From an uncultured Acidobacteriota bacterium (GTDB lineage: Bacteria > Acidobacteriota > Vicinamibacteria > Fen-336), in assembly GCA_963720545.1 (NCBI GenBank), contig OY970399.1:512001-576000 (forward strand): DNA of 64,000 bases. Reading direction: 5' to 3'. A program made the translations under genes and the position numbers. This document shows positions 42,386 to 60,561 of this stretch, piece by piece. The number at the start of each line of letters is the position of its first letter. Positions within the stretch are counted from its first letter, which is position 1. Under the pieces are notes generated by a model, which was given only the letters and a program-made list of their open reading frames with translations, was not told where the DNA came from and did not search any database.

Positions 42386-43072
42386 CTGCGCGCCCGCCGC
42401 CTCGGCCGCGTGCCCTACGCCGAAGGCCTGCGCCTGCAGGCGCAGCTGGTGGCGGAGCGCCAGCAGGACCTGGTCGAAGACACCCTGCTGCTCCTCGAGC
42501 ACGATCCGGTGTTCACTCTCGGCCGCAACGCGCGCAAGGAGCACGTGCTGTTCCCCGAGGAATGGCTGCGCGGCCGCGGCTTCGAGGTGTTCGAGTCCGG
42601 GCGCGGCGGCGACGTCACCTACCATGGCCCCGGCCAGCTGGTCGGCTACCCGATCTTCAAGCTGCCGCCCGCGCGCCGCGATGTGCACCGCTACGTGCGG
42701 GCGCTCGAAGACGTGATGATCCGGACCTGCGCCGCCTACGGAATCTCGGCGGGACGCGTCGCGGGAATGACGGGCGCCTGGGTCGGGGAGCAGAAGATCG
42801 GCGCCATCGGCGTGCGCATCGCCCGCTGGGTGACCTCCCACGGTTTCGCGCTCAACGTCAACAATTCGCTCGAGCCGTTTTCCCTCATTGTTCCGTGCGG
42901 CATCGCCGGCAAGGGTGTCACGAGCCTCGGCGCGCTGCTCGGCCGTGAAGAGCCGCTCGAGCGCGTGATGGACCGCATCGAGGAAAACGTCGGCGCGTTG
43001 CTGGCGCCCCGCAACGACGCCGACGCCGAGGCGGCTACCGAGACGGCGCGGCCGGCCGCAGCGCTGCGCTGA
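42386..43072 (+). CDS. lipB: Lipoyl(octanoyl) transferase LipB (probable CTG start)
   Basis: LLEH.PV.TLGR, RGG.VTYHGPGQ, KI.AIG, HG.ALN, I.PCG. Confidence 0.93.
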   Translation: MRARRLGRVPYAEGLRLQAQLVAERQQDLVEDTLLLLEHDPVFTLGRNARKEHVLFPEEWLRGRGFEVFESGRGGDVTYHGPGQLVGYPIFKLPPARRDVHRYVRALEDVMIRTCAAYGISAGRVAGMTGAWVGEQKIGAIGVRIARWVTSHGFALNVNNSLEPFSLIVPCGIAGKGVTSLGALLGREEPLERVMDRIEENVGALLAPRNDADAEAATETARPAAALR

Positions 43073-44411
43073 TTCGCTCCGCCAGCACCGCGGCGTCGGC
43101 GATGGCGGCGTTGATCGAGACACCGCGGCAGCCGTTGCCGCCGACGAACAGGGCGCCGCGGCTCGCTGCCAGCGCCTCGATGCGCGCGACGCGCGCGGTG
43201 TGGCCGGGCGCGTACTGCGGGATCCCGGCGCGATGCCGAAAGACGCGCACGAAGCGTGGCGCCGCGGTGATGCCCATGACGCGCCGCAGGTCGGAGCGCG
43301 CCGCGACCTCCAGCTCCTGGTCGGAAAGCTCGAGCACCTGCGGCGCCGCCGCCCCGCCGAGCATGGCGCGCAGCAGCGCGTGCCCGGCTGGGGCACGGTT
43401 CGCGAAGATCGCCGAATCCCAGAGCACCCCGAGGGTTTTCAAACCCTCGCCGCGGCCGGCGAGCACGCCGAAGCCGTCGAGCGGCCGCGACAGGTCGGCG
43501 CTGCGGTAACCGAGCGCCACCACCGCCACGTCCGCGGCGCCGATCGCCAACAGCTCCCGCGCGAGCAGCGCGTCGATGCCGGCGACCACCTCTGCGGCGG
43601 CGGCAGGCGGACAGCAGAGCGCAACGGCGTCGGCGACGAGCGTCTCGCCGGTGCGCAACTGCAGTCGGAAGCCGCCTTCCGGGCGGTCGATGTCGATGCG
43701 CGCAACCGCCGCTTTGGTGCGCAGCGCCGGGCCCACGCTGCGCGCCAGGCTCGCGGCGAGCGTCGCGACACCACCGCGCAGCGAGACCAGCCGGGCCCGG
43801 TGGCGGCCGCCGCGGCGGCGCGCCAGCATGCCGCGGAACAGGCTTCCGTGCTCTTGCTCGAGGCGGCAAAGTGCCGGGAACGCGGCGCCGCTCGACAGCT
43901 CGCGCGGGTCGCCCGCGAAGACGCCCGCCGCCATCACGTCGGCGATGGCCGCCGCTGCCTCCTCGCCCAGGCGCCGTGCGAGGAACGCGTGTACGGTCTC
44001 GTCGCCGCTTTCCGCCGACGCAGTGCCCCGGGGCACGAACGGCTCGCGCAGCAGGCGCAGCTTGCCGCGCGCGCTGAGCAGCCGGCTGCGGGCAAACGAC
44101 GCGGGCCCCGTGGGCACGCGATGCAGCTCCCGGCCGCGATAGACGTAGCGCCGCCGCGCGTTGGCGTTGCTCGATTCGATCGCATCCTCGAGGCCGAGTG
44201 CCGCGATCAGCGAGCGGGTGGCCGGCTGGTTGTCGAGCCAGCCGTTGGCGCCGGCTTCGACCGTGTAGCCGTCGGCCTCCAGGGTGCACAGCTTGCCGCC
44301 CGCGCCTTGCGCCGCTTCGAGCACCACCGCCGTGATGCCGCCCTGCGCCAGGAGGCCGTGCGCGAGCGCCAGCCCGGAGACGCCGCCGCCGACGATCGCG
44401 ACCCGTTTCAC
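43035..44411 (-). CDS. hemG: Protoporphyrinogen/coproporphyrinogen oxidase (HemY-type FAD enzyme)
   Basis: GTG at 44411; VAIVGGG.SGL, E.GAN, G.FAGDP..LS, GFG.L, IPQY..GH. Confidence 0.9.
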   Translation of the reverse strand: MKRVAIVGGGVSGLALAHGLLAQGGITAVVLEAAQGAGGKLCTLEADGYTVEAGANGWLDNQPATRSLIAALGLEDAIESSNANARRRYVYRGRELHRVPTGPASFARSRLLSARGKLRLLREPFVPRGTASAESGDETVHAFLARRLGEEAAAAIADVMAAGVFAGDPRELSSGAAFPALCRLEQEHGSLFRGMLARRRGGRHRARLVSLRGGVATLAASLARSVGPALRTKAAVARIDIDRPEGGFRLQLRTGETLVADAVALCCPPAAAAEVVAGIDALLARELLAIGAADVAVVALGYRSADLSRPLDGFGVLAGRGEGLKTLGVLWDSAIFANRAPAGHALLRAMLGGAAAPQVLELSDQELEVAARSDLRRVMGITAAPRFVRVFRHRAGIPQYAPGHTARVARIEALAASRGALFVGGNGCRGVSINAAIADAAVLAERISAALRPAAPSR

Positions 44412-44422
44412 TGGTGGGCGGC

Positions 44423-45814
44423 CTACACCGTCCGCGAAAAACCGGTGCGTGCCGAGGCGCCGCGGCGATACCGGTCGAACACCATGCAGACGTTGCGCAC
44501 CAGCAGGCGCCCGCGTTCGGTCACCGCCACCTCGGTGGCGTCGGGCGTCACCGCAACGATGCCGTCTTCGCTGAGCGCGCCGCGCAGCTCGGCCAGCTCG
44601 GCGGCGAAGTAGTCGCGGAACGACACGCCGAAGCGGCTCTCGACCGCGCGCGCCGCGACGCGAAAGTTGCACATCAGTTCCGCGATCACATGCCGCCGCA
44701 GCCGGTCGTCGGCGTCGAGGCGAAAGCCGCGCTCGATCGGGAAGCGGCCGCGGTCGAGCGCTTCGTAGTACTCGCTCAGCTTCTTAACGTTCTGCGCGAA
44801 CGCCCCGGAGACGTCGCCGATGGCGGAAACACCGCAGCCGACCATGTCCGGCGCGGGCCGCGTGGTGTAGCCCATGAAGTTACGGTGCAGGATGCCGGCG
44901 CGCGCGGCGATCGCGAGTTCGTCCTCCGGCACCGCGAAGTGGTCCATGCCGATCGCGGCATAGCCGGCGCCGAGGAAGCGTTCGCGCGCCATGAGGAAGA
45001 GCGCCATCTTCTCCTCGGCCGAGGGCAGCGCCTCTGGCGACAGCGTGCGCTGATGGCCCTTCATCCACGGCACGTGCGCGTAGGAATAGATCGCGGTGCG
45101 CTCCGGCCGGTTGCGCAACACGCTGTCGAGCGTGCGCGCGAAGCCGTCGCGGGTCTGCCGCGGCAGCCCGTAGATCAGGTCGACGTTGGTCGAGCGGAAA
45201 CCCGCGGCGCGCGCCTGCGCCAGCAGCGTCCAGGTTTCTTCCTCCGACTGGATGCGGTTGACCGCCTGCTGCACGGGCGCGTCGAAGTCCTGCACGCCCA
45301 GCGAAAGGCGGTTGAAGCCGAGGCGCCGCAGCGTATCGATGTGCTCGGCCGTGGTGACGCGCGGGTCCACCTCGATGGCCGCTTCGCCCTGCGGGTCGAG
45401 GTCGAAGTGCTGCGCGACCACGTCCTGCAGCTCCTGCATCTGCGCGGGAGCCAGGTACGTGGGGGTGCCGCCGCCCCAGTGATACTGCACCACGCGGCGG
45501 CGGCCGCCGAGTGCGCCGGCAAGCATCGCCAGCTCGCGGTGCAGGTAGCCGAGGTACTTTTCGGCCACCGAGCGGTTCTTGGTGATGATCACCATGCAGC
45601 CGCAGAAAGTGCAGCGCTCTTCGCAGAAGGGCAGGTGGAGGTAGAGCGACAGCGGCTGATCCGGTGCTCGCGCCGCGGCGGCCAGCTGCTCGCGGTATGC
45701 GGGCTCGTCGAACGCGCTGCTGAACTCGAGCGCGGTCGGATACGACGTGTAGCGCGGACCGGGCCGGTCGTAGGCCCGCAGCAGCTCCAGCGGCACGGCC
45801 GCGGCGGCGCTCAA
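44423..45814 (-). CDS. hemN: Oxygen-independent coproporphyrinogen III dehydrogenase
   Basis: YD.PGPRYTSYP N-terminus, CEERCTFC radical SAM motif, HWGGGTPT, IGMDHF, HRNFMGYT. Confidence 0.95.
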   Translation of the reverse strand: MSAAAAVPLELLRAYDRPGPRYTSYPTALEFSSAFDEPAYREQLAAAARAPDQPLSLYLHLPFCEERCTFCGCMVIITKNRSVAEKYLGYLHRELAMLAGALGGRRRVVQYHWGGGTPTYLAPAQMQELQDVVAQHFDLDPQGEAAIEVDPRVTTAEHIDTLRRLGFNRLSLGVQDFDAPVQQAVNRIQSEEETWTLLAQARAAGFRSTNVDLIYGLPRQTRDGFARTLDSVLRNRPERTAIYSYAHVPWMKGHQRTLSPEALPSAEEKMALFLMARERFLGAGYAAIGMDHFAVPEDELAIAARAGILHRNFMGYTTRPAPDMVGCGVSAIGDVSGAFAQNVKKLSEYYEALDRGRFPIERGFRLDADDRLRRHVIAELMCNFRVAARAVESRFGVSFRDYFAAELAELRGALSEDGIVAVTPDATEVAVTERGRLLVRNVCMVFDRYRRGASARTGFSRTV

Positions 45815-46887
45815 GCGCTCACCCGCTCGCTTTGCTCGCGCACCGCGTCCACCAGCACCTGCGCGTGATCGGGCGGCGTCATCGGCAGGATGCCGTGGCC
45901 GAGGTTGAAGATGTGTCCGCCGCCGGCGCGCGCGGCGGCCGCCAGCACGGCGGCGATGCGCTCACGGATCGCCTGCGGCGGCGCCAGCAGCACGGCGGGA
46001 TCGAGGTTCCCCTGCAGCGCCGGGCCGCGCCCGAGCTTCTGCCGCGCGTCGTCGAGGTCCACGCGCCAGTCCACCCCCACCACGTCGGCGCGCACGTCGC
46101 GCACCCGCGACAGCCGCCCGGCCGAGCCTTCGCCGGCATAGTAGATCCGCGGCGGGCTGGCACCTTGTGGACTGGCACTCGCCACGGCGTCCATCACCTG
46201 GCGCGCATAGGGAATCGCGAACGTCTCGTCGTCGTCCTTCGACAGGATGCCGGCCCAGCTGTCGAACAGCATCACCGCCTGCGCACCCGCCTCGGCCTGC
46301 GCCGCCAGCGACAGGGCCGCCGTCGCCGCGCAGATGGCGAGCAGGCGGTGCGCGGTGGCCGGGTCGTTGTAGAGGAGCGACTTCAGCGCAGCGAAGTTCT
46401 TCGTGCCGCCACCCTCGACGAGGTAGGCCGCGACGGTGAACGGCGCGCCGGCAAAGCCGATGAGCGGTACCGTTGGCGGCAGCGCGCCGCGCACCAGCCG
46501 CAGCGTCTCCAGCAGCCAGGGTGTTGCTTCGGCGGCGGGTGCGACGCGCAGCGTATCGACGTCGGCCGGCGTGCGGATGGTGCGCGCCAGCTTCGGTCCG
46601 GGGGCAAAAGCCACGTCAACCCCCATGCCCGGCAGGCCGATGAGAATGTCGGAGAAGACGATCGCCGCGTCCACGCCGAAGCGGCGGATCGGCTGCAAGG
46701 TCAGTTCGCAGGCGATCTCCGGGGTCTTGCAGCTCGTCAGGAAATCGTAGCGCTCACGCACCGCGCGGTACTCCGGCAGGTAGCGCCCGGCCTGGCGCAT
46801 CATCCACACCGGCGTGCGCGGTACGTCCTCGCCGCGGCACGCGCGCAGGAAGAGCGCGTCTTCGTGCTGGCTGCGCGGCTCACTCAT
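45811..46887 (-). CDS. hemE: Uroporphyrinogen decarboxylase
   Basis: PVWMMRQAGRYLPEY, AAI.FSDIL, LIGFAGAPFT, QGNLDP, IFNLGHGI. Confidence 0.97.
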   Translation of the reverse strand: MSEPRSQHEDALFLRACRGEDVPRTPVWMMRQAGRYLPEYRAVRERYDFLTSCKTPEIACELTLQPIRRFGVDAAIVFSDILIGLPGMGVDVAFAPGPKLARTIRTPADVDTLRVAPAAEATPWLLETLRLVRGALPPTVPLIGFAGAPFTVAAYLVEGGGTKNFAALKSLLYNDPATAHRLLAICAATAALSLAAQAEAGAQAVMLFDSWAGILSKDDDETFAIPYARQVMDAVASASPQGASPPRIYYAGEGSAGRLSRVRDVRADVVGVDWRVDLDDARQKLGRGPALQGNLDPAVLLAPPQAIRERIAAVLAAAARAGGGHIFNLGHGILPMTPPDHAQVLVDAVREQSERVSA

Positions 46888-48184
46888 GGGCAATGCGCAT
46901 CGCCTCGGCGGCCGCCGCGACGGTTGCGTCGATCTGGGCATCGGTGTGGGCGATGGAGATGAAGTTGGCCTCGAACTGCGACGGGGCGAGGAAAAAGCCG
47001 CGGTCGAGCATCACGTGGAAGAAACGGCCATAGCGCGTGGCGTCGCTGGCCTTCGCCGAGGGCCAGTCGACGACCGCGTCTGCGGTGAAGAACAGCGTCC
47101 ACATGGACGCGGCGCGCTGGATGCGGCACGGCACGCCCTGTGCGGCGATGGCCCCCGCGATGCCCTGCTCGAGCCGCGCGCCGAGGGCTTCGAGCCGCGT
47201 GTAGAGATCGGGCATCGCGGCAATCGTGCGCAGCGTCGCGAGCCCTGCCGCCATGCCGAGCGGGTTGCCCGACAGCGTACCCGCCTGGTACACGGGCCCT
47301 TCCGGGGCCACCTGGCTCATCAGGTCGCGGCGCCCGCCGTAGGCTGCGACCGGCAGGCCGCCGCCGACGATCTTGCCGAGGGTCGTGAGGTCGGGCCGCA
47401 CCGAGAACCGCTCCTGCGCGCCACCGCGGCTCACGCGGAAGCCGGTCATCACCTCGTCGAAGATGAGGAGCGCGCCGTGCTCGTCGCACAGCGCGCGCAG
47501 ACCGCCCAGGAAGCCCGCGGCCGGCACGACCACGCCCATGTTGCCGACCACCGGTTCGACGATGAGCGCGGCAACCTTGCCGGGATTGGCGGCAAACAGC
47601 GCGGACACATCGGCGAGGTCGTTGAAGCGGGCGTTCAGTGTATCGCGCGCCGTGGCCGGCGTGACCCCGGGGCTGTCCGGCGTGCCGAAGGTCGCGGCAC
47701 CCGAGCCGGCGCGGATCAGGAACGAGTCGGCATGGCCGTGGTAGCAGCCCTCGAACTTGATGACACGATCCCGGCCGGTAGCCGCACGCGCCAGCCGGAT
47801 CGCGGACATGGTGGCCTCGGTGCCCGAGTTCACCATGCGCACCTTCTCGATCGCCGGCATGAGGCTCGTCAGCAGCTCGCCCATCTCCACTTCGAGCCGG
47901 CTCGGCGCGCCGAACGAGATGCCGGCCCGGGCTTGCTCACGCACCGCCGCAACCACCGCCGGGTGCGAGTGGCCCAGGATCATCGGACCCCACGAACCGA
48001 TGTAGTCGACGAGCGCCCGGCCGTCCTCGTCGAAGACCAGCGAGCCTGCGGCGCGGGCGATGAACCGCGGGCTGCCGCCGACTGCGCGGTAGGCGCGCAC
48101 CGGCGAATTGACGCCGCCCGGCAGCACCTTCCCCGCCCGCTCGAAGAGCAACTCGCTGGCGGTCGTTTCGCTCGCTTGCGTCAT
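46880..48184 (-). CDS. hemL: Glutamate-1-semialdehyde 2,1-aminomutase
   Basis: PGGVNSPVRA, SWGP.ILGH, NSGTEATM, FDEVMTGFR, GKI.GGGLP, YQAGTLSGNP. Confidence 0.97.
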   Translation of the reverse strand: MTQASETTASELLFERAGKVLPGGVNSPVRAYRAVGGSPRFIARAAGSLVFDEDGRALVDYIGSWGPMILGHSHPAVVAAVREQARAGISFGAPSRLEVEMGELLTSLMPAIEKVRMVNSGTEATMSAIRLARAATGRDRVIKFEGCYHGHADSFLIRAGSGAATFGTPDSPGVTPATARDTLNARFNDLADVSALFAANPGKVAALIVEPVVGNMGVVVPAAGFLGGLRALCDEHGALLIFDEVMTGFRVSRGGAQERFSVRPDLTTLGKIVGGGLPVAAYGGRRDLMSQVAPEGPVYQAGTLSGNPLGMAAGLATLRTIAAMPDLYTRLEALGARLEQGIAGAIAAQGVPCRIQRAASMWTLFFTADAVVDWPSAKASDATRYGRFFHVMLDRGFFLAPSQFEANFISIAHTDAQIDATVAAAAEAMRIAHE

Positions 48185-48187
48185 GGT

Positions 48188-49171
48188 TCACGCCAGCAGG
48201 CGCGCAGCCTCCTTCGCGAAGTAGGTCAGGATCACGTCGGCGCCCGCGCGGCGGATCGCGATCAGCGACTCCAGCATGGCGCGTTCGCCGTCGATCCAGC
48301 CGTTGGCGGCCGCGGCGCGCAGCATCGCGTACTCGCCCGAGACGTGGTAGGCGCAGACCGGCGCCGCGAAGCGCTGCTTCACTCGCCAGATGACGTCGAG
48401 ATACGGGAGCGCCGGCTTCACCATGACGACGTCGGCGCCCTCTTCGAGATCGAGCGCCACCTCGCGCAGCGCTTCGTCGGAATTGGCGGGATCCATCTGG
48501 TAGCCGCGGCGGTCGCCGAAGGACGGCGTCGAGCCGGCGGCTTCACGAAACGGCCCGTAGAAAGCCGATGCGTACTTCGCCGCGTACGACACCAGCACCA
48601 CGTCGCTGCGTCCGGCGGCGTCGAGAGCGCGACGGATGACGCCGACGCGGCCGTCCATCATGTCGGAGGGCGCAACCACGTCGGCGCCGGCCTCCGCGTA
48701 GACGAGCGCTGCCTGCGCCAGCAGCGGCAGCGTCGCGTCGTTGTCCACCTCGACGCCGCGCGCATCCTCGTGCAGCGGCCCGCAGTGGCCGTGGTCGGTG
48801 TACTCGCACAGGCACACGTCGGCCCACAGCGACATCTGCGGCAACTCAACCCGCAGGGCGCGCAGCGCCGCCGGCACCGGCCCGTTCGGATCCCACGCCG
48901 CCGTCCCGTGCGCGTTCTTCGCGTCAGGGATGCCGAAGAGGATGACGCCCGGCACGCCGAGCGAGTGCAGCTCACGGCATTCCCCTAGCAGCAGGTCGAC
49001 GCTGAGGCGGTCGCAACCGGGCATCGCGCCGATGGGCACGCGCACGTTCTCGCCGCCGCACACGAACAGCGGCGCGATCAGGTCGCTCGGCGCGAGCCGC
49101 GTCTGCGCGAACATCCGGCGCAGCGTCTCGGTGCGCCGCAGGCGCCGCGGCCGCGACAGCGGATAGCTCAA
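48188..49171 (-). CDS. hemB: Porphobilinogen synthase (Zn-type)
   Basis: TTG at 49171 overlaps the hemD stop; RPRRLR, CLCEYT.HGHC, APSDMMDGR, FYGPFREA, MVKP. Confidence 0.97.
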   Translation of the reverse strand: MSYPLSRPRRLRRTETLRRMFAQTRLAPSDLIAPLFVCGGENVRVPIGAMPGCDRLSVDLLLGECRELHSLGVPGVILFGIPDAKNAHGTAAWDPNGPVPAALRALRVELPQMSLWADVCLCEYTDHGHCGPLHEDARGVEVDNDATLPLLAQAALVYAEAGADVVAPSDMMDGRVGVIRRALDAAGRSDVVLVSYAAKYASAFYGPFREAAGSTPSFGDRRGYQMDPANSDEALREVALDLEEGADVVMVKPALPYLDVIWRVKQRFAAPVCAYHVSGEYAMLRAAAANGWIDGERAMLESLIAIRRAGADVILTYFAKEAARLLA

Positions 49172-49959
49172 TGGAGCCGCACCCTGCGACCTTCGATTGC
49201 GGCCATCACCGCTTCCGCCAGGCCGTCCACCGTGCGGCAGCGCGGTTCGACGTCGGCGGGCGCGCCCAGCGACGCGAGCGCTGCCGACGTCGTCGGCCCG
49301 ACACTGGCCACCACGGTCCTCTTCACAAGCACCCGAAGCGAAGCATCGTCGAACGCCGCGGCCAGTGAAAAGGCGGCGGACGGCGCAAGGAACGTCACCG
49401 CGGCGATCTCGCCGGCATCGAGCAGCGCGCGGAAGCGCCCTGTCTCCGCGGGCTCGGTGGCGCTGGTCGTGTAGGCAACCGGGTCGCAGACCGTGAAGCC
49501 CATCGCCTCGAGGCGCAATCGGAAGTCGGGAGCGGCGCGCTCCGAGCGCGGCCACAGCACCCGGCCGCGACCAACTGCGTCGAGAGCCGCCGCGAGCCCT
49601 GCCGCGCCCGCGTCCGGTGCCGCCACCACCACGTCCGGCGCGATGTCCTCGGCAAGCAGCGCTTCGGCAGTCGCCGGCCCGGCCGCCGCCACCAACGGGC
49701 GCTCGGCACATCGCGCCAGCAGCATCGTGAAGCCGCGGCCGCACGCAGCCGCAACCGCGCGCCGGCTCGTGAACGCGACGCTGCGGAACGTCGCGAGGTC
49801 GCGAAGCGCCGCGTCGAGCGGGGCGAAGTCGCCGGGCTCGCCAATGGCGGTGGCGGCAAGGGGAAACGGCGCCGCGCCGCGCCGCGCCAGCGCTTGCCAG
49901 AGCGGGCCGCCCGCGCCCTCGTCGCGGGTGATGACGACGATGGGCCGTGCCGCGTTCAT
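49168..49959 (-). CDS. hemD: Uroporphyrinogen-III synthase
   Basis: V.ITR, FTS..AV, GP.TA.AL, V.Y.T, F..PSA, SVGP.T..AL...G; lies between hemC and hemB. Confidence 0.88.
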   Translation of the reverse strand: MNAARPIVVITRDEGAGGPLWQALARRGAAPFPLAATAIGEPGDFAPLDAALRDLATFRSVAFTSRRAVAAACGRGFTMLLARCAERPLVAAAGPATAEALLAEDIAPDVVVAAPDAGAAGLAAALDAVGRGRVLWPRSERAAPDFRLRLEAMGFTVCDPVAYTTSATEPAETGRFRALLDAGEIAAVTFLAPSAAFSLAAAFDDASLRVLVKRTVVASVGPTTSAALASLGAPADVEPRCRTVDGLAEAVMAAIEGRRVRLH

Positions 49960-50933
49960 CGTTCCACCGCCGCGGCCAGCGCAGGATTGGCGGCGTGCGC
50001 CGCGCGCACTTCAGAAAGGATGGCGCTGGCACCCTCGGCGAGCGCGCGGCCTCCAAGGACATCGCCGAACGCAACCGCAGCCGCCTCGCTCGTGACCTCC
50101 TCGACAGCACGCTGCCGCACCACTTGCTGTCCATTGACGCTTGCGACCATCGCATCGAGCTGCAGGCGGCCGTCCTGCCAGGTGCCCAGAGCGCCCACCG
50201 GCGCCTGACAGCCGCCTTCGACGCGATGGAGGAACGCCCGCTCGGCAGCCACCGCCAGGCGGGTCGGCCCATGGTCGAGCGCCGCGGCCAGCGCGCATGC
50301 GCGTGCGTCGCCGCTGCGCACCTGCACGGCAAGCGCCCCCTGTCCCGGCGCCGGCACGAAGTCACGCGCGTCGAGCAGCTCGCTCACACGCCGTGCGAGC
50401 CCCAGGCGCGCGAGCCCGGCCTGCGCCAGGATCACGGCGTCGCAGTCGCCGCGGTCGAGTTTCGCGAGGCGGGTCGGCACGTTGCCGCGCAGGTCGCACA
50501 CGCGCAGGTCGGGGCGGGCCGCGAGCAGCTGCGCGCGGCGGCGCAGCGACGACGTGCCGATGCGCGCGCCGCGGCCGAGCTGCCGCAACCCGCCGCCGGC
50601 GCGCGACACCAACGCGTCGCGCGGATCCTCGCGTTCCAGGATCGCGGCAAGCTGCAGGCCGGCGCCCGGCGCCGTCTGCAGGTCCTTGAGGCTGTGGACG
50701 GCGATGTCGACGCGCCCTTCTAACAGTGCATCCTCGATCTCGCGCGTGAAGACCCCCTGGGTGCCGATGGCGGCGAACGCCGCGGCGGCGGCCTGGTCAC
50801 CGGCGGTCCGGACGACGACCACCTCGATGCCGAGCCCAGGCGTCGCCTCCAGGAGCCGTTCGCGGACATGCCCGGCCTGCCACAAGGCCAGGGCGCTGCC
50901 GCGCGTGCCGAGCCGCAGCGCTGCGTCAGCCAA
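49956..50933 (-). CDS. hemC: Hydroxymethylbilane synthase
   Basis: TTG at 50933; GTRGS.LA.WQA, AVHSLKD, GTSSLRR, RGNV.TR, EGGC. Confidence 0.96.
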   Translation of the reverse strand: MADAALRLGTRGSALALWQAGHVRERLLEATPGLGIEVVVVRTAGDQAAAAAFAAIGTQGVFTREIEDALLEGRVDIAVHSLKDLQTAPGAGLQLAAILEREDPRDALVSRAGGGLRQLGRGARIGTSSLRRRAQLLAARPDLRVCDLRGNVPTRLAKLDRGDCDAVILAQAGLARLGLARRVSELLDARDFVPAPGQGALAVQVRSGDARACALAAALDHGPTRLAVAAERAFLHRVEGGCQAPVGALGTWQDGRLQLDAMVASVNGQQVVRQRAVEEVTSEAAAVAFGDVLGGRALAEGASAILSEVRAAHAANPALAAAVER

Positions 50934-52200
50934 GGATGTCCTCGTGCTCGGGCGTGAGCCCGAACAACTCGTGTGCCGCGCGCAGCCGCGCGCTGCCCTC
51001 GGCGGTGCGCGGGTCGATGCCGCGCAACTGGCTGGCCGGTGCCTGCAGCAGTTTGTTGACGAGCGCACGCGTGAGCCGCTCGATGTCGCGGCGATGCTCG
51101 GCCGGGAAGCCCGCGAGGTGGCGCTCGACCTCGGCTTCGCGGATCGACTCGAAGCGTGCGCGCAGCCGGCGCTCGAACGGCGGCCGGCGGAAGCTCTCGT
51201 CCCACGCGACGAAGCGGCCGCACTCCTGCGCGACGATGTTCTCGACCTTGCGCACTTCCGCCTCGCGCAGGCTCTGGTTGCGGGCCACCACCTCACCGAC
51301 GTCGTCGATCGACACCAGCGTGACGCCGACGCCGTTAACCGCGGCGCCCGGTTCGACCGCGCGCGGCACCGAGACGTCGATCACCAACAGCGGCCGGCCC
51401 GCGCGACGCGACACGCAGCGATCGAGCGCGGCGCGGGTGAGCAGCGGCGCTTCGGTGCGCACGGCCACCAGCACCACGTCAACGTCGTCGAGGACCGTGT
51501 CGATGTCCTCGAGCCCGACGGCCCGGCCGCGCACTTCCCTGGCCAGGGCCTGCGCGCGCGCCGCGGTGCGGTTCGCGACATAGAGCGCCGCGGCACGCTT
51601 GTCGGCCGCGTGCAGCGCCAGCAGCCTGCCGGTCTCGCCCGCGCCGATCACCAGCACCTTGCGGCTCGCGAACCCGGCCGTGCCGCGCGCGGCGAGCGAC
51701 ACCGCGGCCGACGCCACCGACAAGGCGCCCCTGGCAAGCGCCGTTTCCGCGCGTCCGCGCCGTCCTGCGCCGAGCGCCGCGGCCACCAGCCGCTCGAGCC
51801 GCGGACCCGAGGCGCCCGCCGCACGCGACAGCGCCAGCGCGTCCTTCACCTGGCCGAGGATCTCGGTTTCGCCGAGGATCCGCGACTCGAGGCCGCAGGC
51901 GACTCGCAACAGGTGGCGGCAGGCCGCCTCATCCGAGGCACGCCGCGCCGCGGCTGCCAGGGCCTGCTCACGCTCGGCGCCGAGCGTGCGCGCGACGAAG
52001 CTGTCAAAGGCGCCGCGGTCCGGCGCGAATGCGTACACTTCCGCGCGGTTGCAGGTGCTGAGCACCAGCGCTTCGCGCCAGACGCCGGCCGCGATGCCCT
52101 CGCGCAGCAGCTCCTGCGCCGCGGCGGCATCACGCGCCGCGTGTTCGCGCAGTTCCACCGCCGCTACACGGTGATCGACGCCAAGAAGTTGAAGATCCAT
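50926..52200 (-). CDS. hemA: Glutamyl-tRNA reductase
   Basis: LSTCNR catalytic Cys, GL.S...GE..ILGQVK, IGAGE, D.SVPR; GAGAGGG SD directly before the ATG. Confidence 0.95.
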   Translation of the reverse strand: MDLQLLGVDHRVAAVELREHAARDAAAAQELLREGIAAGVWREALVLSTCNRAEVYAFAPDRGAFDSFVARTLGAEREQALAAAARRASDEAACRHLLRVACGLESRILGETEILGQVKDALALSRAAGASGPRLERLVAAALGAGRRGRAETALARGALSVASAAVSLAARGTAGFASRKVLVIGAGETGRLLALHAADKRAAALYVANRTAARAQALAREVRGRAVGLEDIDTVLDDVDVVLVAVRTEAPLLTRAALDRCVSRRAGRPLLVIDVSVPRAVEPGAAVNGVGVTLVSIDDVGEVVARNQSLREAEVRKVENIVAQECGRFVAWDESFRRPPFERRLRARFESIREAEVERHLAGFPAEHRRDIERLTRALVNKLLQAPASQLRGIDPRTAEGSARLRAAHELFGLTPEHEDILG

Positions 52201-52329
52201 CCCTCTCGTACCCGTTCCTGCACGCGCGACCTCGTGGACGGTGGGCGCGTGTTCCAGGGCAAGCGCCCCGGAGTCCTTGCTGAGTTGACCTGCGAAGGAC
52301 CGTTAGAACGGCGGGGGGCGGGAGAAGAG
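52201..52329 (-). promoter_or_regulatory. Putative translational attenuator RNA structure that sequesters the hemA ribosome-binding site
   Basis: Three hairpins in the 102-nt intergenic mRNA. They are closed by pairing of the upstream ORF's last codons (CCGUUC, CUUCUC) with GAACGG and GAGAGG just before the hemA AUG. Folded by eye. Confidence 0.55.
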
Positions 52330-52788
52330 CGACGGCGTGAACGCGGCGCGTCTTGCCGAAATGGCGGAGACGACGCCCACGCGCGCATGTCGAAGCCGCG
52401 GCACCAGAAGCTGGGCGCGGCCAAGAAGCGCCGTGACCAGCAGGATGGTGGCGACGATCGGCGCGAGCGAGCCGGGAAGCAGGAAAATGCCGTCGGCGTT
52501 GGCAACAGAATCGACAGGTGGCGCCGCCACGCCAAGATGCAGCGCCACCACCAGTACGCCGAGCACGACCAGCTTGCGCGTGGAGAACGGACGGCCGCGG
52601 CGCCACAGTTCGCGCAGCGCGGCGACGACGGCAAGGGCCGCTCCCCAGCGCACGAAATCGAGCGCGCCGAAGTCGGCCCGGGCAATGCGCGAAAGAAGCA
52701 GCCAGACGTGGAACAGGACCAGCGGCACGCCGGATGCGGCGCCCGCGATCCACAACAACTTCCGGCCAGTCAAGGTCTTGCCAGTCAC
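52303..52788 (-). CDS. Four-TM membrane protein with a C-terminal RPPP (RAPP-like) motif; candidate ribosome-arrest leader of the hem operon
   Basis: 161 aa, four hydrophobic helices, His27 and His84 within helices, ends ...TPSLFSRPPPF-stop, 102 nt upstream of hemA. Confidence 0.7.
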   Translation of the reverse strand: MTGKTLTGRKLLWIAGAASGVPLVLFHVWLLLSRIARADFGALDFVRWGAALAVVAALRELWRRGRPFSTRKLVVLGVLVVALHLGVAAPPVDSVANADGIFLLPGSLAPIVATILLVTALLGRAQLLVPRLRHARVGVVSAISARRAAFTPSLFSRPPPF

Positions 52789-52800
52789 CTGCTGCCGACC

Positions 52801-53562
52801 TTACGACGCCGGAGTGCCCCGGTCAAGGCTGATCTGCCCCGGCTGGCGGCGCAGCTCGTCCACCAGCCGCGCGTTGCGCAGGGCCACCACCAGGAACTCG
52901 GCGATGGTTTCGCCGGTGGCCACGTCGTCGAGGCCGAAATCGTCGATCTGGTCGCTCTGCACGTCGATCGCCCCCACCACCTCGCCGCCGTCCATCAGCG
53001 GCACCACCATCTCGGAGCGCGTGTCGAGGACGTCGCGGCGATAGTCGGGGTCGCGGCGCACGTCGCTCACCACCTGCGGCGCGCGCTTGCGCACCGCGCG
53101 GCCGATGATGCCGGCAGCCGGGGCCTGCGCGCGTCCCGCCGACTGGCGGCTCACGCCCTCGCGTCCGGCCCACCGCCCGATCAGGACGCCATCGGTATCG
53201 AGCACGGTGACCGCGACCGAGTTGTAGTTCATCTTTTCCTGGATGGCGCGCGCCGCCTCCTGCATGAGCGCATCGGATTCGAGGATGGACGCGACCCGGT
53301 GGATGACCGAGTTGAGCATGGCCAGGTGGTCGGCGCGGCGCTGGTGGAGGCGCGACTGCGCCCGCAGCGCGGACACTTCCTCGCTGAGTTCACCCAGGCG
53401 CGCGAGCGCCAACCCGTCGGGCCCGCCGCCGGCCCTGTGCGTCGCCGGCCTGCGAACCGCCGGTGCGGCCCGCCTCGCCTTCTTCAGCGGGTTCCTCGTG
53501 GTCGTCTTCTTCTTCACCGCTTTTTTCTTCACCGCGGTCTTCCTGCTGGCGCGCGACTTCAT
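52801..53562 (-). CDS. Stand-alone GAF-domain protein with a Lys/Arg-rich N-terminal tail
   Basis: ATG at 53562 overlaps the menG stop (ATGA); GIIGRA......V.DVR.DP.Y....TRSE..VPL...G..VGAIDVQS....F...D GAF signature. Confidence 0.85.
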   Translation of the reverse strand: MKSRASRKTAVKKKAVKKKTTTRNPLKKARRAAPAVRRPATHRAGGGPDGLALARLGELSEEVSALRAQSRLHQRRADHLAMLNSVIHRVASILESDALMQEAARAIQEKMNYNSVAVTVLDTDGVLIGRWAGREGVSRQSAGRAQAPAAGIIGRAVRKRAPQVVSDVRRDPDYRRDVLDTRSEMVVPLMDGGEVVGAIDVQSDQIDDFGLDDVATGETIAEFLVVALRNARLVDELRRQPGQISLDRGTPAS

Positions 53563-54308
53563 CGGGGTTTCTCCGCTCGGTAGAGATGGGCAATGCCGGA
53601 CGTCAGCGATTCCGCGGTGATGGCGGCGAATCCGTTGCGCTCGAGCAGCTCGCAGAAGCGCTGCGGCTCCGGGAACCGCGCGATCGACGACGGCAGGTAT
53701 TCGTAGGCCGAGCGGTCGCCGCTGACGAGCGCGCCGACGCGCGGCAGGACGTGGCGCGAGTAGGAACGGTACAAGGCACCCATGAGGCCGCGTGGGTTCG
53801 AGAACTCGAGTATCAGGAAGCGCCCGCCCGGGCGCAGCACCCGCGCCACCTCGGCCATGGCCTGCTCGAGACGCAGCACGTTGCGGATGCCGAACGAGAC
53901 ACACGCGGCATCGAAGGACGCTGCGGCAAACGACAGGTTCTCCGCATCGCCGCCGAGGAGCGTCGCACGCCCGGCGAGTCCGGCGCGTTCGAGCTTGCCG
54001 TGTCCCAGCGACAGCATCCCCGACGAAAGGTCGATGCCGGCGCCGGTGGTGCCGCCGGTCTTGCGCAGCGCTGCGCGCAGGACATCGGCGGTGCCGGTGC
54101 ACAGGTCGAGGAGTCGCTCGCCGTTTTGCAGTTCCAGCCGCTTCACCAGGCGCCGCCGCCAGCGCAGGTCGGTGCCGCCGGAGAGCAGGTGGTTGAGCAG
54201 GTCGTAGCGGTGCGCGATGCGGTCGAACATCGACCGCACGGCCGCTTTCTCGGGGGCGCCGGGCGTCGGACCGGGCAACACCGCCGACGAGCTCCTCACC
54301 ACGGCCAC
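53559..54308 (-). CDS. menG: Demethylmenaquinone methyltransferase (UbiE/MenG family)
   Basis: MFD.IA.RYD.LN..LS.G.D..WR, LDLCTGT.D, FG.RN, RVL.PGG, AY.YL..SI. Confidence 0.92.
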   Translation of the reverse strand: MAVVRSSSAVLPGPTPGAPEKAAVRSMFDRIAHRYDLLNHLLSGGTDLRWRRRLVKRLELQNGERLLDLCTGTADVLRAALRKTGGTTGAGIDLSSGMLSLGHGKLERAGLAGRATLLGGDAENLSFAAASFDAACVSFGIRNVLRLEQAMAEVARVLRPGGRFLILEFSNPRGLMGALYRSYSRHVLPRVGALVSGDRSAYEYLPSSIARFPEPQRFCELLERNGFAAITAESLTSGIAHLYRAEKPR

Positions 54309-54315
54309 CTGCGAA

Positions 54316-55179
54316 TTATAGAAGGACGAGGGCGGTCACGGTGGCCGCAAGGTACAGGACGCTGATCCAGCCGTTCACGGTGAAGAACGCGGCGTTCACG
54401 CGCGACAGGTCGGAGGCGCTCACCAGGCTGTGCTCGTACACGAGCAGCAGCGCCACCAGCGCCACCCCGAGGAGGTAGGCGGGGTGCAGCGGATGGAACC
54501 AGTAGACCGAGGCGAGCGATGCCACCGCCAACACGTGCAGGCCGCGCGCGATCCCGAGCGCCGTCGCGACTCCGAAGCGTGCGGGCAGCGACCGCAGGCC
54601 GGCGCCGCGGTCGAAGTCGGCGTCCTGGCACGAATAGATGACGTCGAAGCCCGCCACCCAAAACAGCACGCCGAAGCCGACGAGGAACGGCACCACCGCG
54701 AAGCTGCCGCGGATGGCGAGCCATGCGCCGACGGGCGCAATCGCAAGTGCGACGCCAAGGACGAGGTGCGACAGCGACGTGAACCGCTTGGTATACGAGT
54801 AGCCGCAGACGATTGCCAGCGCCAAAGGCGCCAGCACTCCGCACAGCGGGTTGAGCGCGACCGCCGCTGCCACGAATGCCGCGGCCGACAGCGCCACGAA
54901 CAACCAGACATGCAGCCGCGCCAGCCGGCCCGACGGCAGCTCGCGGCCGCTGGTGCGCGGGTTGCGCGCATCGATGTCGTGATCGGCGAGGCGGTTGAAA
55001 CCCATGGCCGCGCTGCGCGCGCCGACCATGGCCACGACGATGAGCGCCACCTGGCGCAGCGTGACCCCGTTGCCGCCGGCAAGCGCCGCCGCCGCGAGCG
55101 CGAACGGCAACGCAAACAGCGAATGCGAGAAGCGGATCATCCGCCCGTAGTCGACGACACGCCCGCCGGCGGTGATCAT
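54316..55179 (-). CDS. mqnP: UbiA-family prenyltransferase of the futalosine pathway
   Basis: ATG at 55179; HS.FALPFA, ARS.AM..NR..D...D..NPRT..R, YS..KR, FD..Y..QD...D, N.AFF..NG. Confidence 0.88.
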   Translation of the reverse strand: MITAGGRVVDYGRMIRFSHSLFALPFALAAAALAGGNGVTLRQVALIVVAMVGARSAAMGFNRLADHDIDARNPRTSGRELPSGRLARLHVWLFVALSAAAFVAAAVALNPLCGVLAPLALAIVCGYSYTKRFTSLSHLVLGVALAIAPVGAWLAIRGSFAVVPFLVGFGVLFWVAGFDVIYSCQDADFDRGAGLRSLPARFGVATALGIARGLHVLAVASLASVYWFHPLHPAYLLGVALVALLLVYEHSLVSASDLSRVNAAFFTVNGWISVLYLAATVTALVLL

Positions 55180-55193
55180 GGCCGCGCCTCGCG

Positions 55194-56378
55194 TCAGACG
55201 GGACGCGGGCGGGCTTCGCCGGACACCAGGAACTCGAACGGATCTCCCGGTGCCGTGTAGGCCGAGGCATGCACCAGCTGCGCGCGCTTGCCCGGCGCGA
55301 TGGTGCCGAGATCGTCGAGGCCGAGGGCGCTGGCGCCGGCCACGGTGGCCATGCGGACCAGCGTCTCGGCGCCGAGCGTCGGCACCGCGCGGCGCAGCGC
55401 GCCGATGTCGTCCATCAGGTCGAGTGTCGGCACGCTCGCGAGGCTGTCGGTGCCGATGCAGACGTTGATGCCGGCATCCACCATCTTCTGCACCGGCGGC
55501 AGCCCCACCTTGAGGTTGCGGTTGCTGCGCGGGCAAACCGCGATCGACACGCCCGACGCCGCAAGGTCCGCGACGTCGTCGTCGTCGGCCTGCGTGCAGT
55601 GCGCGGCGATCAGCTTCGGCCGCAGCACGCCGATCGAACGCAGGTACGCGACGGGGCTGATGCCGGGCGCCTGGAACGGCACCGGGCCGACGCGCCGCTT
55701 GAGGAAGTCGGACCAGTCGCCGTTGCCGGTCATGAAGAAGCGCATCTCGGCGGGCGATTCGGCGAGGTGAATGGTCGCCGGCGCACCCTGCGCCGACATC
55801 AGCGTGAACAGGTCGCGCGACACCGAGTGCGGCGCGTGCGCGCCCATCATCACGCGCACGTCGCTCTCGCCAAGCTCGGGGTCGAGCTGCGCCAGCCGTG
55901 CCAACGCCTTGTCGAGGACCGTCTTTGCCTGCGCCGGGTCCCAGCCGATCAGTTCGTAGAAGACGACCGCGTGCAGCGGCGAGTTGGCCAGCAGGTCGAG
56001 GTGCGCGAGCGTGTTGGAGATGTCGCCGACGGCGACCGTACCCGTCGTCTCCAGCGCGCGCAGCGCGTCCTGGACCTTGAGCCGCACCACCTGGGCGTTC
56101 TCGTCGCGGCGCGCGTCGATCAGGTTCTGCACCCACGGCACGAAGCCGAGCGAAAAATCGATGCGGTGGCGCAGGTGCGACAGCTCGATGTGGCAATGGG
56201 CGTTCACGAGACCGGGCAGGAGGACGCCTGGACCGAGACGGCGCACGGGTCCCTGCGGCTCCCCCGCCTCGCCGGCGAGGCCGACCCAGACCACGCGACC
56301 GTCCTGGACCGCCACCCGCCCGTTCGGCAAGGGCGGCCGATCCATCGGCACCACCCAGGACGACGTCAGTATCTGCAC
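55194..56378 (-). CDS. Amidohydrolase, probable aminodeoxyfutalosine deaminase
   Basis: PGL.NAH.H.E, H.AES, CPRSN, GTDS; sits inside the mqn cluster, and the function is inferred from that context. Confidence 0.72.
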   Translation of the reverse strand: MQILTSSWVVPMDRPPLPNGRVAVQDGRVVWVGLAGEAGEPQGPVRRLGPGVLLPGLVNAHCHIELSHLRHRIDFSLGFVPWVQNLIDARRDENAQVVRLKVQDALRALETTGTVAVGDISNTLAHLDLLANSPLHAVVFYELIGWDPAQAKTVLDKALARLAQLDPELGESDVRVMMGAHAPHSVSRDLFTLMSAQGAPATIHLAESPAEMRFFMTGNGDWSDFLKRRVGPVPFQAPGISPVAYLRSIGVLRPKLIAAHCTQADDDDVADLAASGVSIAVCPRSNRNLKVGLPPVQKMVDAGINVCIGTDSLASVPTLDLMDDIGALRRAVPTLGAETLVRMATVAGASALGLDDLGTIAPGKRAQLVHASAYTAPGDPFEFLVSGEARPRPV

Positions 56379-56454
56379 CGTCTCGAATGATAACGCTTCG
56401 AGCCGCGAACCGCGGCGCTATACTGGCGCGATTTCATCCATTGGAGGGCGAACA

Positions 56455-57402
56455 ATGTCAGCGTTCCGAGGCGTCTGGGCGGGCGCGGTGGTGGTGGCGT
56501 CAGCGGCCGCGTTTTTCACCTTGTCGCAGCCGGCTGCGGCGCAGGACTGGAAAGGCATGGGCCGCATCGAGGGCCGTGTCGTCGACGCCGACGGCAAGCC
56601 GGTCGTCGGCGCGGACCTGAAGCTCGAGCTCGTCGGCCGCGGCGCGGGCGCAACCGCGAAGACCGACAAGAACGGCCGCTGGGCGCTGGGCGGCATCGCC
56701 GCCGGCCGCTGGAACATCGACATCTCGGCGCCCGGATACAAGACCAGCAAGACCTACCTCGACCTGCACTCGGAAACGGAGCGGCCCAAGCCCCCGGTGA
56801 CCGTCCTCGAGAAGGACACTCCCACCGGACCGCCGCCGGAAGTGCTCGCTGCAGTGAAGGCGGGTGACGAAGCGTTCGCAGCCGGCAAGTTCCCCGAAGC
56901 GCGCGCCGAATACGAGAAGCTCCTCGCCATGCGCCCCGACCTCGCCGACACCCTGCACCTGCAGATCGCGCGCTGCTACGACCAGGAAGGCAATTTCCCG
57001 AAGGAGCTCGAACACCTCAAGGCGCTCATCGAGATCGACCCGACCAACAACAACTTCCGCTTCCTCGCCGGCCAGGTCGCGATCAAGTCGGGCCAGGTGG
57101 ACGACGGCCTCACGTTCCTGAAGGGCGTCAACGACTCGGGCGTCACCGACCCCAACGTCTTCTTCAACGTGGCTGTGCTGTTGCTGAATGCCGGGCGCAG
57201 CGACGACGCGGTCGTCTACCTCACCAAGAGCATCACCCTCGACCCCAACTACGCCGACGGCTACTTCCAGCGGGGCCTCGCCTACATCGGCGCCGGCAAA
57301 ACGGCCGAAGCCCGCGCCGACCTGGAAAAATTCATCGCCCTCGCCCCCGCCGACTCGCGAGCCGACATGGCGAAGAAAGCTTTGGAGCAACTGCCGAAGT
57401 GA
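56455..57402 (+). CDS. Secreted carboxypeptidase-regulatory-like domain + TPR protein
   Basis: GGAG RBS and ATG at 56455, signal peptide, G.V.D..G.P..GA, TD..G, several TPR repeats. Confidence 0.85.
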   Translation: MSAFRGVWAGAVVVASAAAFFTLSQPAAAQDWKGMGRIEGRVVDADGKPVVGADLKLELVGRGAGATAKTDKNGRWALGGIAAGRWNIDISAPGYKTSKTYLDLHSETERPKPPVTVLEKDTPTGPPPEVLAAVKAGDEAFAAGKFPEARAEYEKLLAMRPDLADTLHLQIARCYDQEGNFPKELEHLKALIEIDPTNNNFRFLAGQVAIKSGQVDDGLTFLKGVNDSGVTDPNVFFNVAVLLLNAGRSDDAVVYLTKSITLDPNYADGYFQRGLAYIGAGKTAEARADLEKFIALAPADSRADMAKKALEQLPK

Positions 57403-57507
57403 AGCGCATCGGGATTGTTCAGCGGCAGTAGGAGTGTTGCGAGGAGACTCTTCGCGCTCTGCCGACGACATGGAGCGCTCAGAGAAACGGGCCGGGAGGC
57501 GGCGGGG

Positions 57508-60536: not shown

Positions 60537-60561
60537 GTTTCTCCGTAACTTGGCGAGATAG

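Follow-up and report, generated by a model that had tools for sequence, protein, structure and literature searches.

A candidate ribosome-arrest leader upstream of hemA in an Acidobacteriota genome, and its conserved protein family

Introduction

Control of bacterial heme synthesis at glutamyl-tRNA reductase, the product of hemA, is known mainly as protein turnover and transcriptional regulation. In a 64,000-nucleotide stretch of the genome of an uncultured soil Acidobacteriota bacterium from the lineage Vicinamibacteria; Fen-336 (contig OY970399.1, positions 512,001 to 576,000; this whole stretch is referred to below as the window), the hem operon that starts with hemA is preceded on the same strand by a small open reading frame (ORF), and the locus raises the question of what the product of this ORF, hereafter the leader, does in front of a heme-synthesis operon. 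A sequence-only reading of the window had proposed that the leader is a membrane-inserted sensor of heme whose C-terminal R-x-P-P (RxPP) motif arrests the ribosome and thereby controls hemA. The explanation that we favor, holding it about as probable as all others together, is that the leader is a cis-acting RxPP ribosome-arrest leader that controls the downstream heme-supply gene in a ligand-dependent manner. To the more specific proposal, that this would be the first heme-responsive arrest peptide, i.e., a nascent four-helix protein that captures heme via two histidines so that the pull on the RxPP stall sets expression, we give a chance a little short of even.

The leader gene and its family

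As the sequence-only reading had it, the ORF encodes 161 aa on the minus strand and ends 102 nt before hemA. The features to which the text refers are as follows.

52303..52788, minus strand: leader/sensor gene (161 aa, predicted GTG start, TAA stop), supported by the ORF, coding-like G+C content at third codon positions (GC3), homologues, predicted helices, and mostly synonymous variation
52708..52710, minus strand: His27 codon, in helix 1, invariant in 34/34 family members
52645..52647, minus strand: Trp48 codon, at the start of helix 2, invariant in 34/34 family members
52537..52539, minus strand: His84 codon, in helix 3, invariant in 34/34 family members
52420..52488, minus strand: helix 4, residues 101-123, per AlphaFold2 and the linker measurement
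52321..52419, minus strand: linker, residues 124-156, of which the family keeps the length and not the sequence
52309..52320, minus strand: codons of R157-P158-P159-P160, the RxPP arrest-type motif per the family alignment, followed by Phe and the stop codon
52201..52302, minus strand: 102-nt spacer from leader to hemA, with no Rfam family and no terminator-like site
50926..52200, minus strand: hemA (glutamyl-tRNA reductase), which opens the operon presumed to be regulated, with domains GlutR_N, Shikimate_DH, and GlutR_dimer
43038..50900, minus strand: remaining hem operon per domain matches (hemC, hemD, hemB, hemL, hemE, HemN-type, HemY-type)

The leader ORF is confirmed as a real gene rather than a chance open frame in DNA of 72% G+C by its codon-position G+C content, by its homologues, and by natural variation that is mostly synonymous and keeps the frame. 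The G+C content of its three codon positions (0.735/0.525/0.809) is like that of the neighboring genes, and the frames overlapping it are not coding-like. Across contigs from three soil-type metagenome runs (soil, rhizosphere) and one RNA library, three of the four listed substitutions in the leader frame are synonymous (V140, R131, F45) and the fourth changes Ile115 to Leu. One metagenome contig (run X1) has the sole insertion or deletion in the ORF, 3 nt inserted in frame at 52342 within the linker, and natural leader variants thus differ in linker length by one residue. The sole contig from the RNA library (run X20) holds a 278-nt insert, 52314-52591, between adapter sequences; its minus-strand end is the first base of the Pro159 codon, within the RPPP codons, and a single fragment of this kind could be chance or DNA carry-over and is insufficient for a claim of transcription or of a 3' end.

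The leader protein has no match in Pfam or NCBIfam, and the database entries of its family, some of them from Thermoanaerobaculia, are all named "hypothetical protein." An HMMER search of 1.84 billion representatives returned 10 proteins at E up to 0.001. A scan of genome contigs yielded no loci with the single leader protein as query and two with a four-sequence leader alignment, and a scan of metagenome contigs yielded two, locus L056 among them. Whole-genome profile searches detected the leader gene in 12 of the 78 genomes from the same order and in at least 18 of 401 genomes sampled across the phylum, the latter figure being a lower bound since eight candidates were scored per genome. The homologues, which include close relatives at 85% and 47% protein identity, reach down to 23% identity and were found in Acidobacteriota only, across several classes; two named relatives with the leader are Acidobacteriota/Vicinamibacterales metagenome-assembled genomes. 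One genome (G016) has two leader copies, the first before a HemX-like gene, hemA, and hemC and the second before the gene of a membrane protein termed p242 here.

The family alignment holds 34 sequences, 27 from genomic loci and 7 from databases, with an N-terminally cut copy (G287) and a short database entry (P0008) excluded. At a mean column identity of 30%, its only invariant columns are H27, W48, H84, R157, P159, and P160. The membrane histidines and the R..PP residues, singled out beforehand from one sequence, are thus conserved despite divergence elsewhere, and only Trp48 joins them. The alignment has no conserved Cys column, and the 161-aa window protein lacks cysteine altogether. None of the 34 members matches DUF2946 (PF11162) at E up to 1, and neither the leader nor any of the 34 matches Cytochrom_C_asm (PF01578). 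The sole exception in any list is P0008, a 116-aa entry that ends before the motif region and is taken as a truncated record.

The RxPP motif and the linker

All 28 genomic loci end in R-[P/A/G]-P-P, with 17 RPPP, 10 RAPP, and one RGPP, and the 34-member alignment holds 21 RPPP, 12 RAPP, and one RGPP, each followed by a tail of 1-10 residues (median 3). Fifteen of 15 further database members carry RAPP or RPPP 1-5 residues from the end. R157 is invariant in 34/34 members while the residues flanking it vary, and position 158 is P, A, or G. The view of R-x-P-P as an arrest motif accords with published work on such motifs, whose arrest-competent set includes x = A, G, and P (PMC12992588). Per that study, the motif Arg is irreplaceable for arrest, the Ala can be replaced by Gly and less well by Ser, Asp, or Pro, and random screens recovered arrest-inducing RxPP in which x was G, A, S, or P; RAPP and RGPP are concentrated close to the C-terminal ends of small proteins, secreted or of the membrane, whose genes lie upstream of functionally diverse ones (PMC12992588).

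The same study describes RAPP-like motifs as avoided proteome-wide (PMC12992588), and the genome of the window agrees with this. In a crude set of its 2592 coding-like ORFs, R[AGP]PP occurs 32 times versus 82 expected from composition, the reversed motif occurs 100 times, and the control motif A[AGP]PP occurs 225 times versus 131 expected. Only five of these ORFs, the leader among them, have R[AGP]PP within 12 residues of the end. The other four lie outside the window, at G000:C1:3722510-3723259, 632768-633583, 2020848-2021237, and 51463-52695, one of them ending in RRPPPA, and may be further arrest candidates or mis-called frames.

Between the last helix and the motif, about 34 residues had been estimated; counted from R124, the first charged residue past helix 4, to R157, the window protein has 33. 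Counted in the same manner across the family, up to the motif Arg, the linker has a median of 32 residues with quartiles of 31 and 33. The four low outliers, at 7, 11, 20, and 24, come from sequences without a charged residue right after the helix, and three of them measure about 30-35 residues when read by eye, the 24-residue one excepted. Mean pairwise identity is 0.15 in the linker versus 0.37 in helices 1-3. The expected conservation of the helix-to-RxPP spacing is therefore one of length and not of sequence, as would be expected for a segment that only spans the ribosome exit tunnel.

Genes downstream of the leader

In 28/28 loci the leader is followed by a co-directional gene at a distance of 49-192 nt (median 122 nt). 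Per Pfam, hemA follows directly in five loci (the window, G063, G437, G257, and G297), and in six the next gene is a Cytochrom_C_asm (HemX/CcsA-like) gene of 270-310 aa. Behind the HemX-like gene stands hemA in the three of these six loci that were scanned (3/3; G037, G020, and G028), and hemC was confirmed at the HemX-like loci of G037 and G016. The Plug domain of TonB receptors was found in the downstream gene at 12/28 loci (11 directly, one behind a p242-like stretch); in G392, one frame starts p242-like and reads through into the TonB receptor. At the remaining five loci the leader is followed by p242, a multi-pass membrane protein of about 242 aa:

L065:8434-9165 (G210): p242
L027:2113-2835 (G016): p242
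L023:2009-2734 (G040): p242
L026:2009-2734 (G046): p242
L024:845-1570 (G039): p242

The p242 protein has no Pfam or NCBIfam family, and an Atlas look-up returned unnamed clusters only; it may be the inner-membrane part of the same heme system. In G210 the gene order is leader, p242, heme-type TonB receptor, ccmA-B-C-E-F, the ccm genes being those of heme-handling cytochrome c maturation. Taken together, the leader always heads a heme-supply gene or a gene of unassigned role, and no sec or yidC gene (secA, secDF, yidC) lies downstream in any of the 28 loci. The genes upstream of the leader vary between genomes, and the conserved link is therefore that of the leader to its downstream gene. The expectation that its neighbors would be heme genes was right for the hem genes and heme-type receptors, the TonB outputs as such not having been foreseen.

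The window's own operon had been read as hemA-C-D-B-L-E-N-G. Domain matches bear out hemA-C-D-B-L-E-N, with hemC, hemD, an aminotransferase of hemL type, hemE, a HemN-type radical S-adenosylmethionine (SAM) gene, and hemB present after hemA; the gene called hemG is an amine-oxidase gene of HemY type and not of the flavodoxin HemG type. In G437 and G297, the hemA operon likewise continues with hemC, hemB, hemL, hemE, and hemN-type genes.

On a maximum-likelihood tree of the 34 leader proteins, whose bootstrap was not fully settled, the class of downstream gene needs 13 changes versus a minimum possible of 4. Within well-supported clades, hemA outputs stand beside HemX-like ones and TonB outputs beside p242, and RGPP and RAPP occur together within one 100/99 clade. 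The 13 output changes therefore suggest that the sensor was re-wired several times between making and importing heme.

The type of the linked TonB receptors

Six of the 12 linked receptors were compared with NCBIfam models, and in 6/6 the best match is TIGR01785 or TIGR01786, i.e., the heme/hemoglobin and the hemoglobin/transferrin/lactoferrin receptor families. Their scores of 150-238 bits clearly exceed those for the siderophore model; in four of the six a single full-length stretch aligns to both models, and the other two align to TIGR01786 only. Three of these genomes, with 18-30 TonB receptor genes apiece, supplied nine other receptors as a control. In contrast to the linked receptors, none of the nine has a heme-type best match, the best matches being B12 (2), TOL_0244 (2), siderophore (3), ZnuD (1), and nothing (1). 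The receptor evidence thus points to heme without being conclusive.

Structure, candidate ligand, and proposed mechanism

The four hydrophobic helices of the earlier reading, with His27 and His84 inside two of them, recur in the AlphaFold2 prediction (helices 5-37, 42-64, 70-88, and 104-128) at a mean predicted local distance difference test (pLDDT) score of 74, with 86-89 for helices 1-3. The histidines stand in the sequences LVLFH27VWL of helix 1 and VVALH84LG of helix 3, i.e., two invariant histidines in different membrane helices at similar depth. The distribution of charged residues suggests that the N-terminus, the RRGRPFSTRK loop that joins helix 2 to helix 3, and the C-terminal tail are cytoplasmic. 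His27 and His84 would each be about two thirds along helices that run from cytoplasm to periplasm, and both, together with Trp48 and a frequent Pro105, would lie towards the periplasmic side.

The classic heme b site is a pair of histidine ligands in a helix bundle. Because of this, and because the outputs of the family are heme synthesis, heme-type receptors, and once a ccm neighborhood, heme is the best candidate ligand, and heme b is the most likely one for His27 and His84. One signal meaning that heme is short would make sense for all outputs of the family.

Going beyond what is shown, namely the gene with its motif, its invariant residues, its conserved spacing, and its neighborhood, we propose the following mechanism, in part by analogy with known arrest peptides. 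The leader would be inserted into the inner membrane during its synthesis, with both termini cytoplasmic and four helices across the membrane. The ribosome would stall at R157-P158-P159, with P159 in the P site and Pro160-tRNA in the A site, at which point helix 4 would be some 33-36 residues from the catalytic center and just outside the exit tunnel. The rate at which the stall is pulled free would hinge on whether helix 4 docks onto helices 1-3, and docking would in turn depend on a ligand held by His27 and His84, with Trp48 nearby, towards the periplasmic side. The length of the stall would set the expression of the gene behind the leader, i.e., the hemA operon here and, in sister genomes, either the HemX-like gene with hemA or the heme-type TonB-dependent receptor. 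By analogy with the arrest leader CruR described below, the operon would stay expressed as long as the ribosome remains stalled for want of ligand, e.g., because Rho could then not terminate transcription within the spacer, and would be shut off once ligand helps to release the stall.

Comparison with published arrest peptides

CruR (Bp2923) of Bordetella pertussis, a DUF2946 (PF11162) protein, is a close parallel in layout. Arrest at its RAPP prevents Rho from terminating within a G+C-rich spacer of 162 bp, so that a TonB-receptor operon stays on; copper relieves the arrest, and the spacing from sensor to motif is conserved (PMC9426467). As described there, CruR shares with the leader a small upstream ORF with an RAPP-type motif a few residues before the stop, and with the leader family a conserved sensor-to-motif spacing and a long G+C-rich spacer; its target, a TonB-dependent receptor, is of the kind found at the sister loci, and the direction of control, arrest keeping the operon on and ligand relieving it, is the one proposed here. 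Unlike CruR, the leader has neither a DUF2946 match nor a CxxC motif, has four membrane helices in place of an exported domain, and would sense through two membrane histidines and a tryptophan; its family has a motif that is mostly RPPP and, here, a heme-synthesis target.

CutF of Rhodobacter capsulatus, also of DUF2946, is described as a nascent-chain sensor exported or inserted co-translationally, as we propose for the leader, and as having a C-terminal proline-rich stalling-like motif, as the leader does, and controlling the next gene on the same mRNA (PMC9973294). In CutF, copper prolongs the stall, which opens a stem-loop over the Shine-Dalgarno sequence (PMC9973294), an unmasking that our in silico analysis of the leader does not support. 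Both CutF and CruR carry Cys motifs (PMC9973294, PMC9426467).

By description, a close likeness in architecture is to Streptomyces lividans SLIV_18480, SLIV_27375, and SLIV_33595 along with SLIV_33605 (PMC12992588), which are small, have four predicted helices with conserved residues and a C-terminal RxPP, and precede a co-directional gene of varied function. Seven Streptomyces proteins stall in vitro in an Arg-dependent manner, these four with four membrane helices and conserved residues among them (PMC12992588). The four belong to a different phylum, and their downstream genes are described as metal-related, thioredoxin-related, or ECF (extracytoplasmic function) sigma genes and not heme genes (PMC12992588). 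In SecM, MifM, VemP, ApdA, and ApdP, arrest is released by a pull exerted about one tunnel length from the stall, and ApdA, ApdP, and SecM share with the leader an R-A/G-P-P-type core motif (PMC7897499, PMC10987492, PMC10951233). These peptides monitor Sec or YidC; unlike in their case, no sec or yidC gene lies downstream of the leader, and its invariant membrane histidines suggest that it senses a ligand rather than translocon capacity.

Full-text literature searches found no arrest peptide tied to heme, hemA, or tetrapyrrole synthesis. The 30 downstream products that PMC12992588 lists as most enriched behind RAPP motifs include TonB receptors, copper genes, secD, and ubiquinol oxidases and no heme-synthesis gene. 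Heme, glutamyl-tRNA reductase, porphobilinogen, and cytochrome c assembly or biogenesis are absent as terms from the searchable supplements of that study, which is not proof of absence. Its survey covered RAPP and RGPP and not RPPP, and surveys limited in this way therefore miss RPPP leaders, the majority of this family. The unannotated leader family fits an arrest leader of the RAPP-like class in which both the sensor domain and the target pathway are new.

Points against the arrest explanation and its coupling to hemA

Several observations weigh against a heme-responsive arrest leader, some of them against the heme and some against the arrest. In the structural prediction, helix 4 and the tail are less confident (pLDDT 54-79). 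Foldseek against the PDB gave a best E of 2.8 and VIA-align a best Z of 6.9 to generic helical hairpins, neither with a match to a heme protein, and the two histidines could instead hold a metal ion, e.g., in a dimer. The receptor scores lie below the curated cut-off of about 317-324 bits, and the FRAP and NPNL boxes, a signature of heme receptors, occur together in just 2 of the 10 linked receptors. RPPP contains the classical PPP relieved by elongation factor P (EF-P). Replacement of Ala by Pro keeps arrest only partly in ApdA and ApdP (PMC12992588). Finally, the window's genome has no HemX-like gene, unlike six relatives; its only two Cytochrom_C_asm matches are adjacent, at G000:C1:2408509-2410629, in a ccmC/ccmF-type arrangement. 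A HemX-dependent model is therefore not applicable here.

The RNA analyses add to these points as regards the route from stall to hemA. Between 51900 and 53100, Rfam gave only a sub-threshold match to COG2908 RNA (E 0.25) inside hemA. The promoter scan found 0 promoter-like sites, and the terminator scan found none in the spacer and two inside the leader ORF, which is within the shuffle expectation of 0.8 +/- 1.0. The minimum-free-energy fold of the spacer region pairs the codons just before the motif with the Shine-Dalgarno/start region of hemA (z = -1.93). With wide flanks, the downstream ribosome-binding site (RBS) is predicted to pair preferentially with the stall-proximal 43 nt in 11/28 loci, and the summed expected pairs are 138.8 for these 43 nt versus 33.7 for the 170 nt upstream. 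However, when a 30-nt stall footprint was forced to be unpaired, mean RBS accessibility over the 28 loci went from 0.35 to 0.36, decoy footprints giving 0.36 and 0.34, and a gain of at least 0.15 was seen in only one locus (1/28). In the window, the footprint raised the accessibility of the hemA RBS from 0.28 to 0.30, and the pairing of 10.9 expected pairs was reached by 13/70 synonymous recodings and 34/70 base shuffles. As unmasking of the hemA RBS is thus unsupported by the footprint-constraint, recoding, and shuffle controls, we do not claim it. The heme-sensing arrest reading as first put forward came through all the comparative tests that it had set, and it failed to gain a heme-protein fold match or a stall that opens the hemA RBS.

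Rho-type coupling, as in CruR, is a possible route. An excess of C over G, a weak hint of a Rho site, was found in the spacers of 20/28 loci, is strong only in three related genomes, and is missing in the window spacer (-0.02). The spacers at L023, L024, and L026 (G040, G039, and G046) are 49-55 nt long with C at 0.44-0.49 and G at 0.10-0.13. In these three loci a conserved long hairpin joins the codons before RAPP to the region before the next start codon and shows one apparent compensatory change, which is weak evidence because the three genomes are close kin.

Alternative explanations

The best-surviving alternative, which we nonetheless regard as unlikely, keeps the RxPP arrest leader and gives it a signal other than heme, be it iron, zinc, or copper at the two histidines (perhaps in a dimer), quinone redox, or membrane-insertion capacity. 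A metal is suggested by precedent, as known RAPP leaders before TonB receptors sense copper (PMC9426467, PMC9973294) and metal genes dominate the published downstream lists (PMC12992588), and also by a divergent Nramp-family metal transporter gene just upstream of the cluster of leader, HemX-like gene, and hemA in two genomes of one genus (G028 and G006; loci L033 and L034). Yet 11/28 loci head heme-synthesis genes (hemA or HemX-like) and not metal genes, and the family has neither a conserved Cys or Met nor a conserved third or fourth ligand. That the receptors' heme-family scores fall below the curated cut-off counts in favor of another signal; a heme-type match in 6/6 linked receptors tested versus 0/9 controls counts against it. 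Joint induction of hemA and an uptake receptor would moreover be coherent for a shortage of heme and less so for one of iron. The menaquinone genes upstream in the window speak for a quinone signal, and the lack of sec or yidC downstream in the 28 loci argues against one of insertion capacity.

Somewhat less probable again is that the leader is an ordinary stable small membrane protein that handles heme, e.g., as a partner of HemX/CcsA-like proteins, p242, or the receptor pathway, with the RxPP as a binding tail. In its favor, the sensor part shows the good conservation of a folded protein, the RNA tests lend no support to RBS unmasking, and the gene adjoins a HemX-like gene in 6/28 loci and p242 in 5-6. 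HemX of Bacillus and Staphylococcus, a CcsA-like (PF01578) membrane protein of the hemA operon, tunes glutamyl-tRNA reductase, and in Staphylococcus aureus it controls the abundance of this enzyme (PMC5801465). However, the leader lacks a PF01578 match and is half the size of HemX, and in the window's genome a partner of this kind is absent. A binding tail is hard to square with a linker that keeps its length but not its sequence. Also against a merely stable protein stand a motif that coincides exactly with the arrest-competent set R-[A/G/P]-P-P, ends 1-10 residues before the stop in every case, and is otherwise avoided by the genome, and a gene that in every locus leads a co-directional pair, 49-192 nt ahead of its partner.

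A chance open frame or functionless gene remnant, for which one could cite the frequency of long spurious ORFs at 72% G+C and a GC3 of 0.81 somewhat below the 0.88-0.92 of the neighbors, is extremely improbable and, given invariant residues across several classes of the phylum, coding-like codon-position G+C, and mostly synonymous, frame-keeping variation, is ruled out for practical purposes.

Genes surrounding the leader in the window

On the same strand, the genes upstream of the leader are a GAF-domain gene, ubiE/menG, an MqnP-like prenyltransferase gene, an aminofutalosine-deaminase-like gene, and further mqn genes. The GAF-domain gene (52801-53600, minus strand, start uncertain) encodes a lysine-rich N-terminal stretch, ends 12 nt before the GTG of the leader, and is not a conserved neighbor among the other genomes examined; tetrapyrroles or nucleotides can be ligands of GAF domains. 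From 43038 to 61136, the minus strand carries one long cluster of futalosine-pathway menaquinone genes (mqn-type radical SAM, aminofutalosine deaminase-like, MqnP-like, and UbiE/MenG), the GAF gene, the leader, and the complete hem operon, which places two respiratory cofactor pathways side by side.

Significance

Surveys restricted to RAPP and RGPP pass over RPPP-type leaders such as most of those described here. If the family works as proposed, nascent-chain sensing would extend from copper and secretion capacity to a cofactor, the co-translational loading of a cofactor into a membrane protein would be read out as mechanical force, and a swappable sensor module would balance the making of heme against its import. 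The leader family would then also offer a simple, testable handle on heme homeostasis in the Acidobacteria, a dominant but poorly studied soil phylum.

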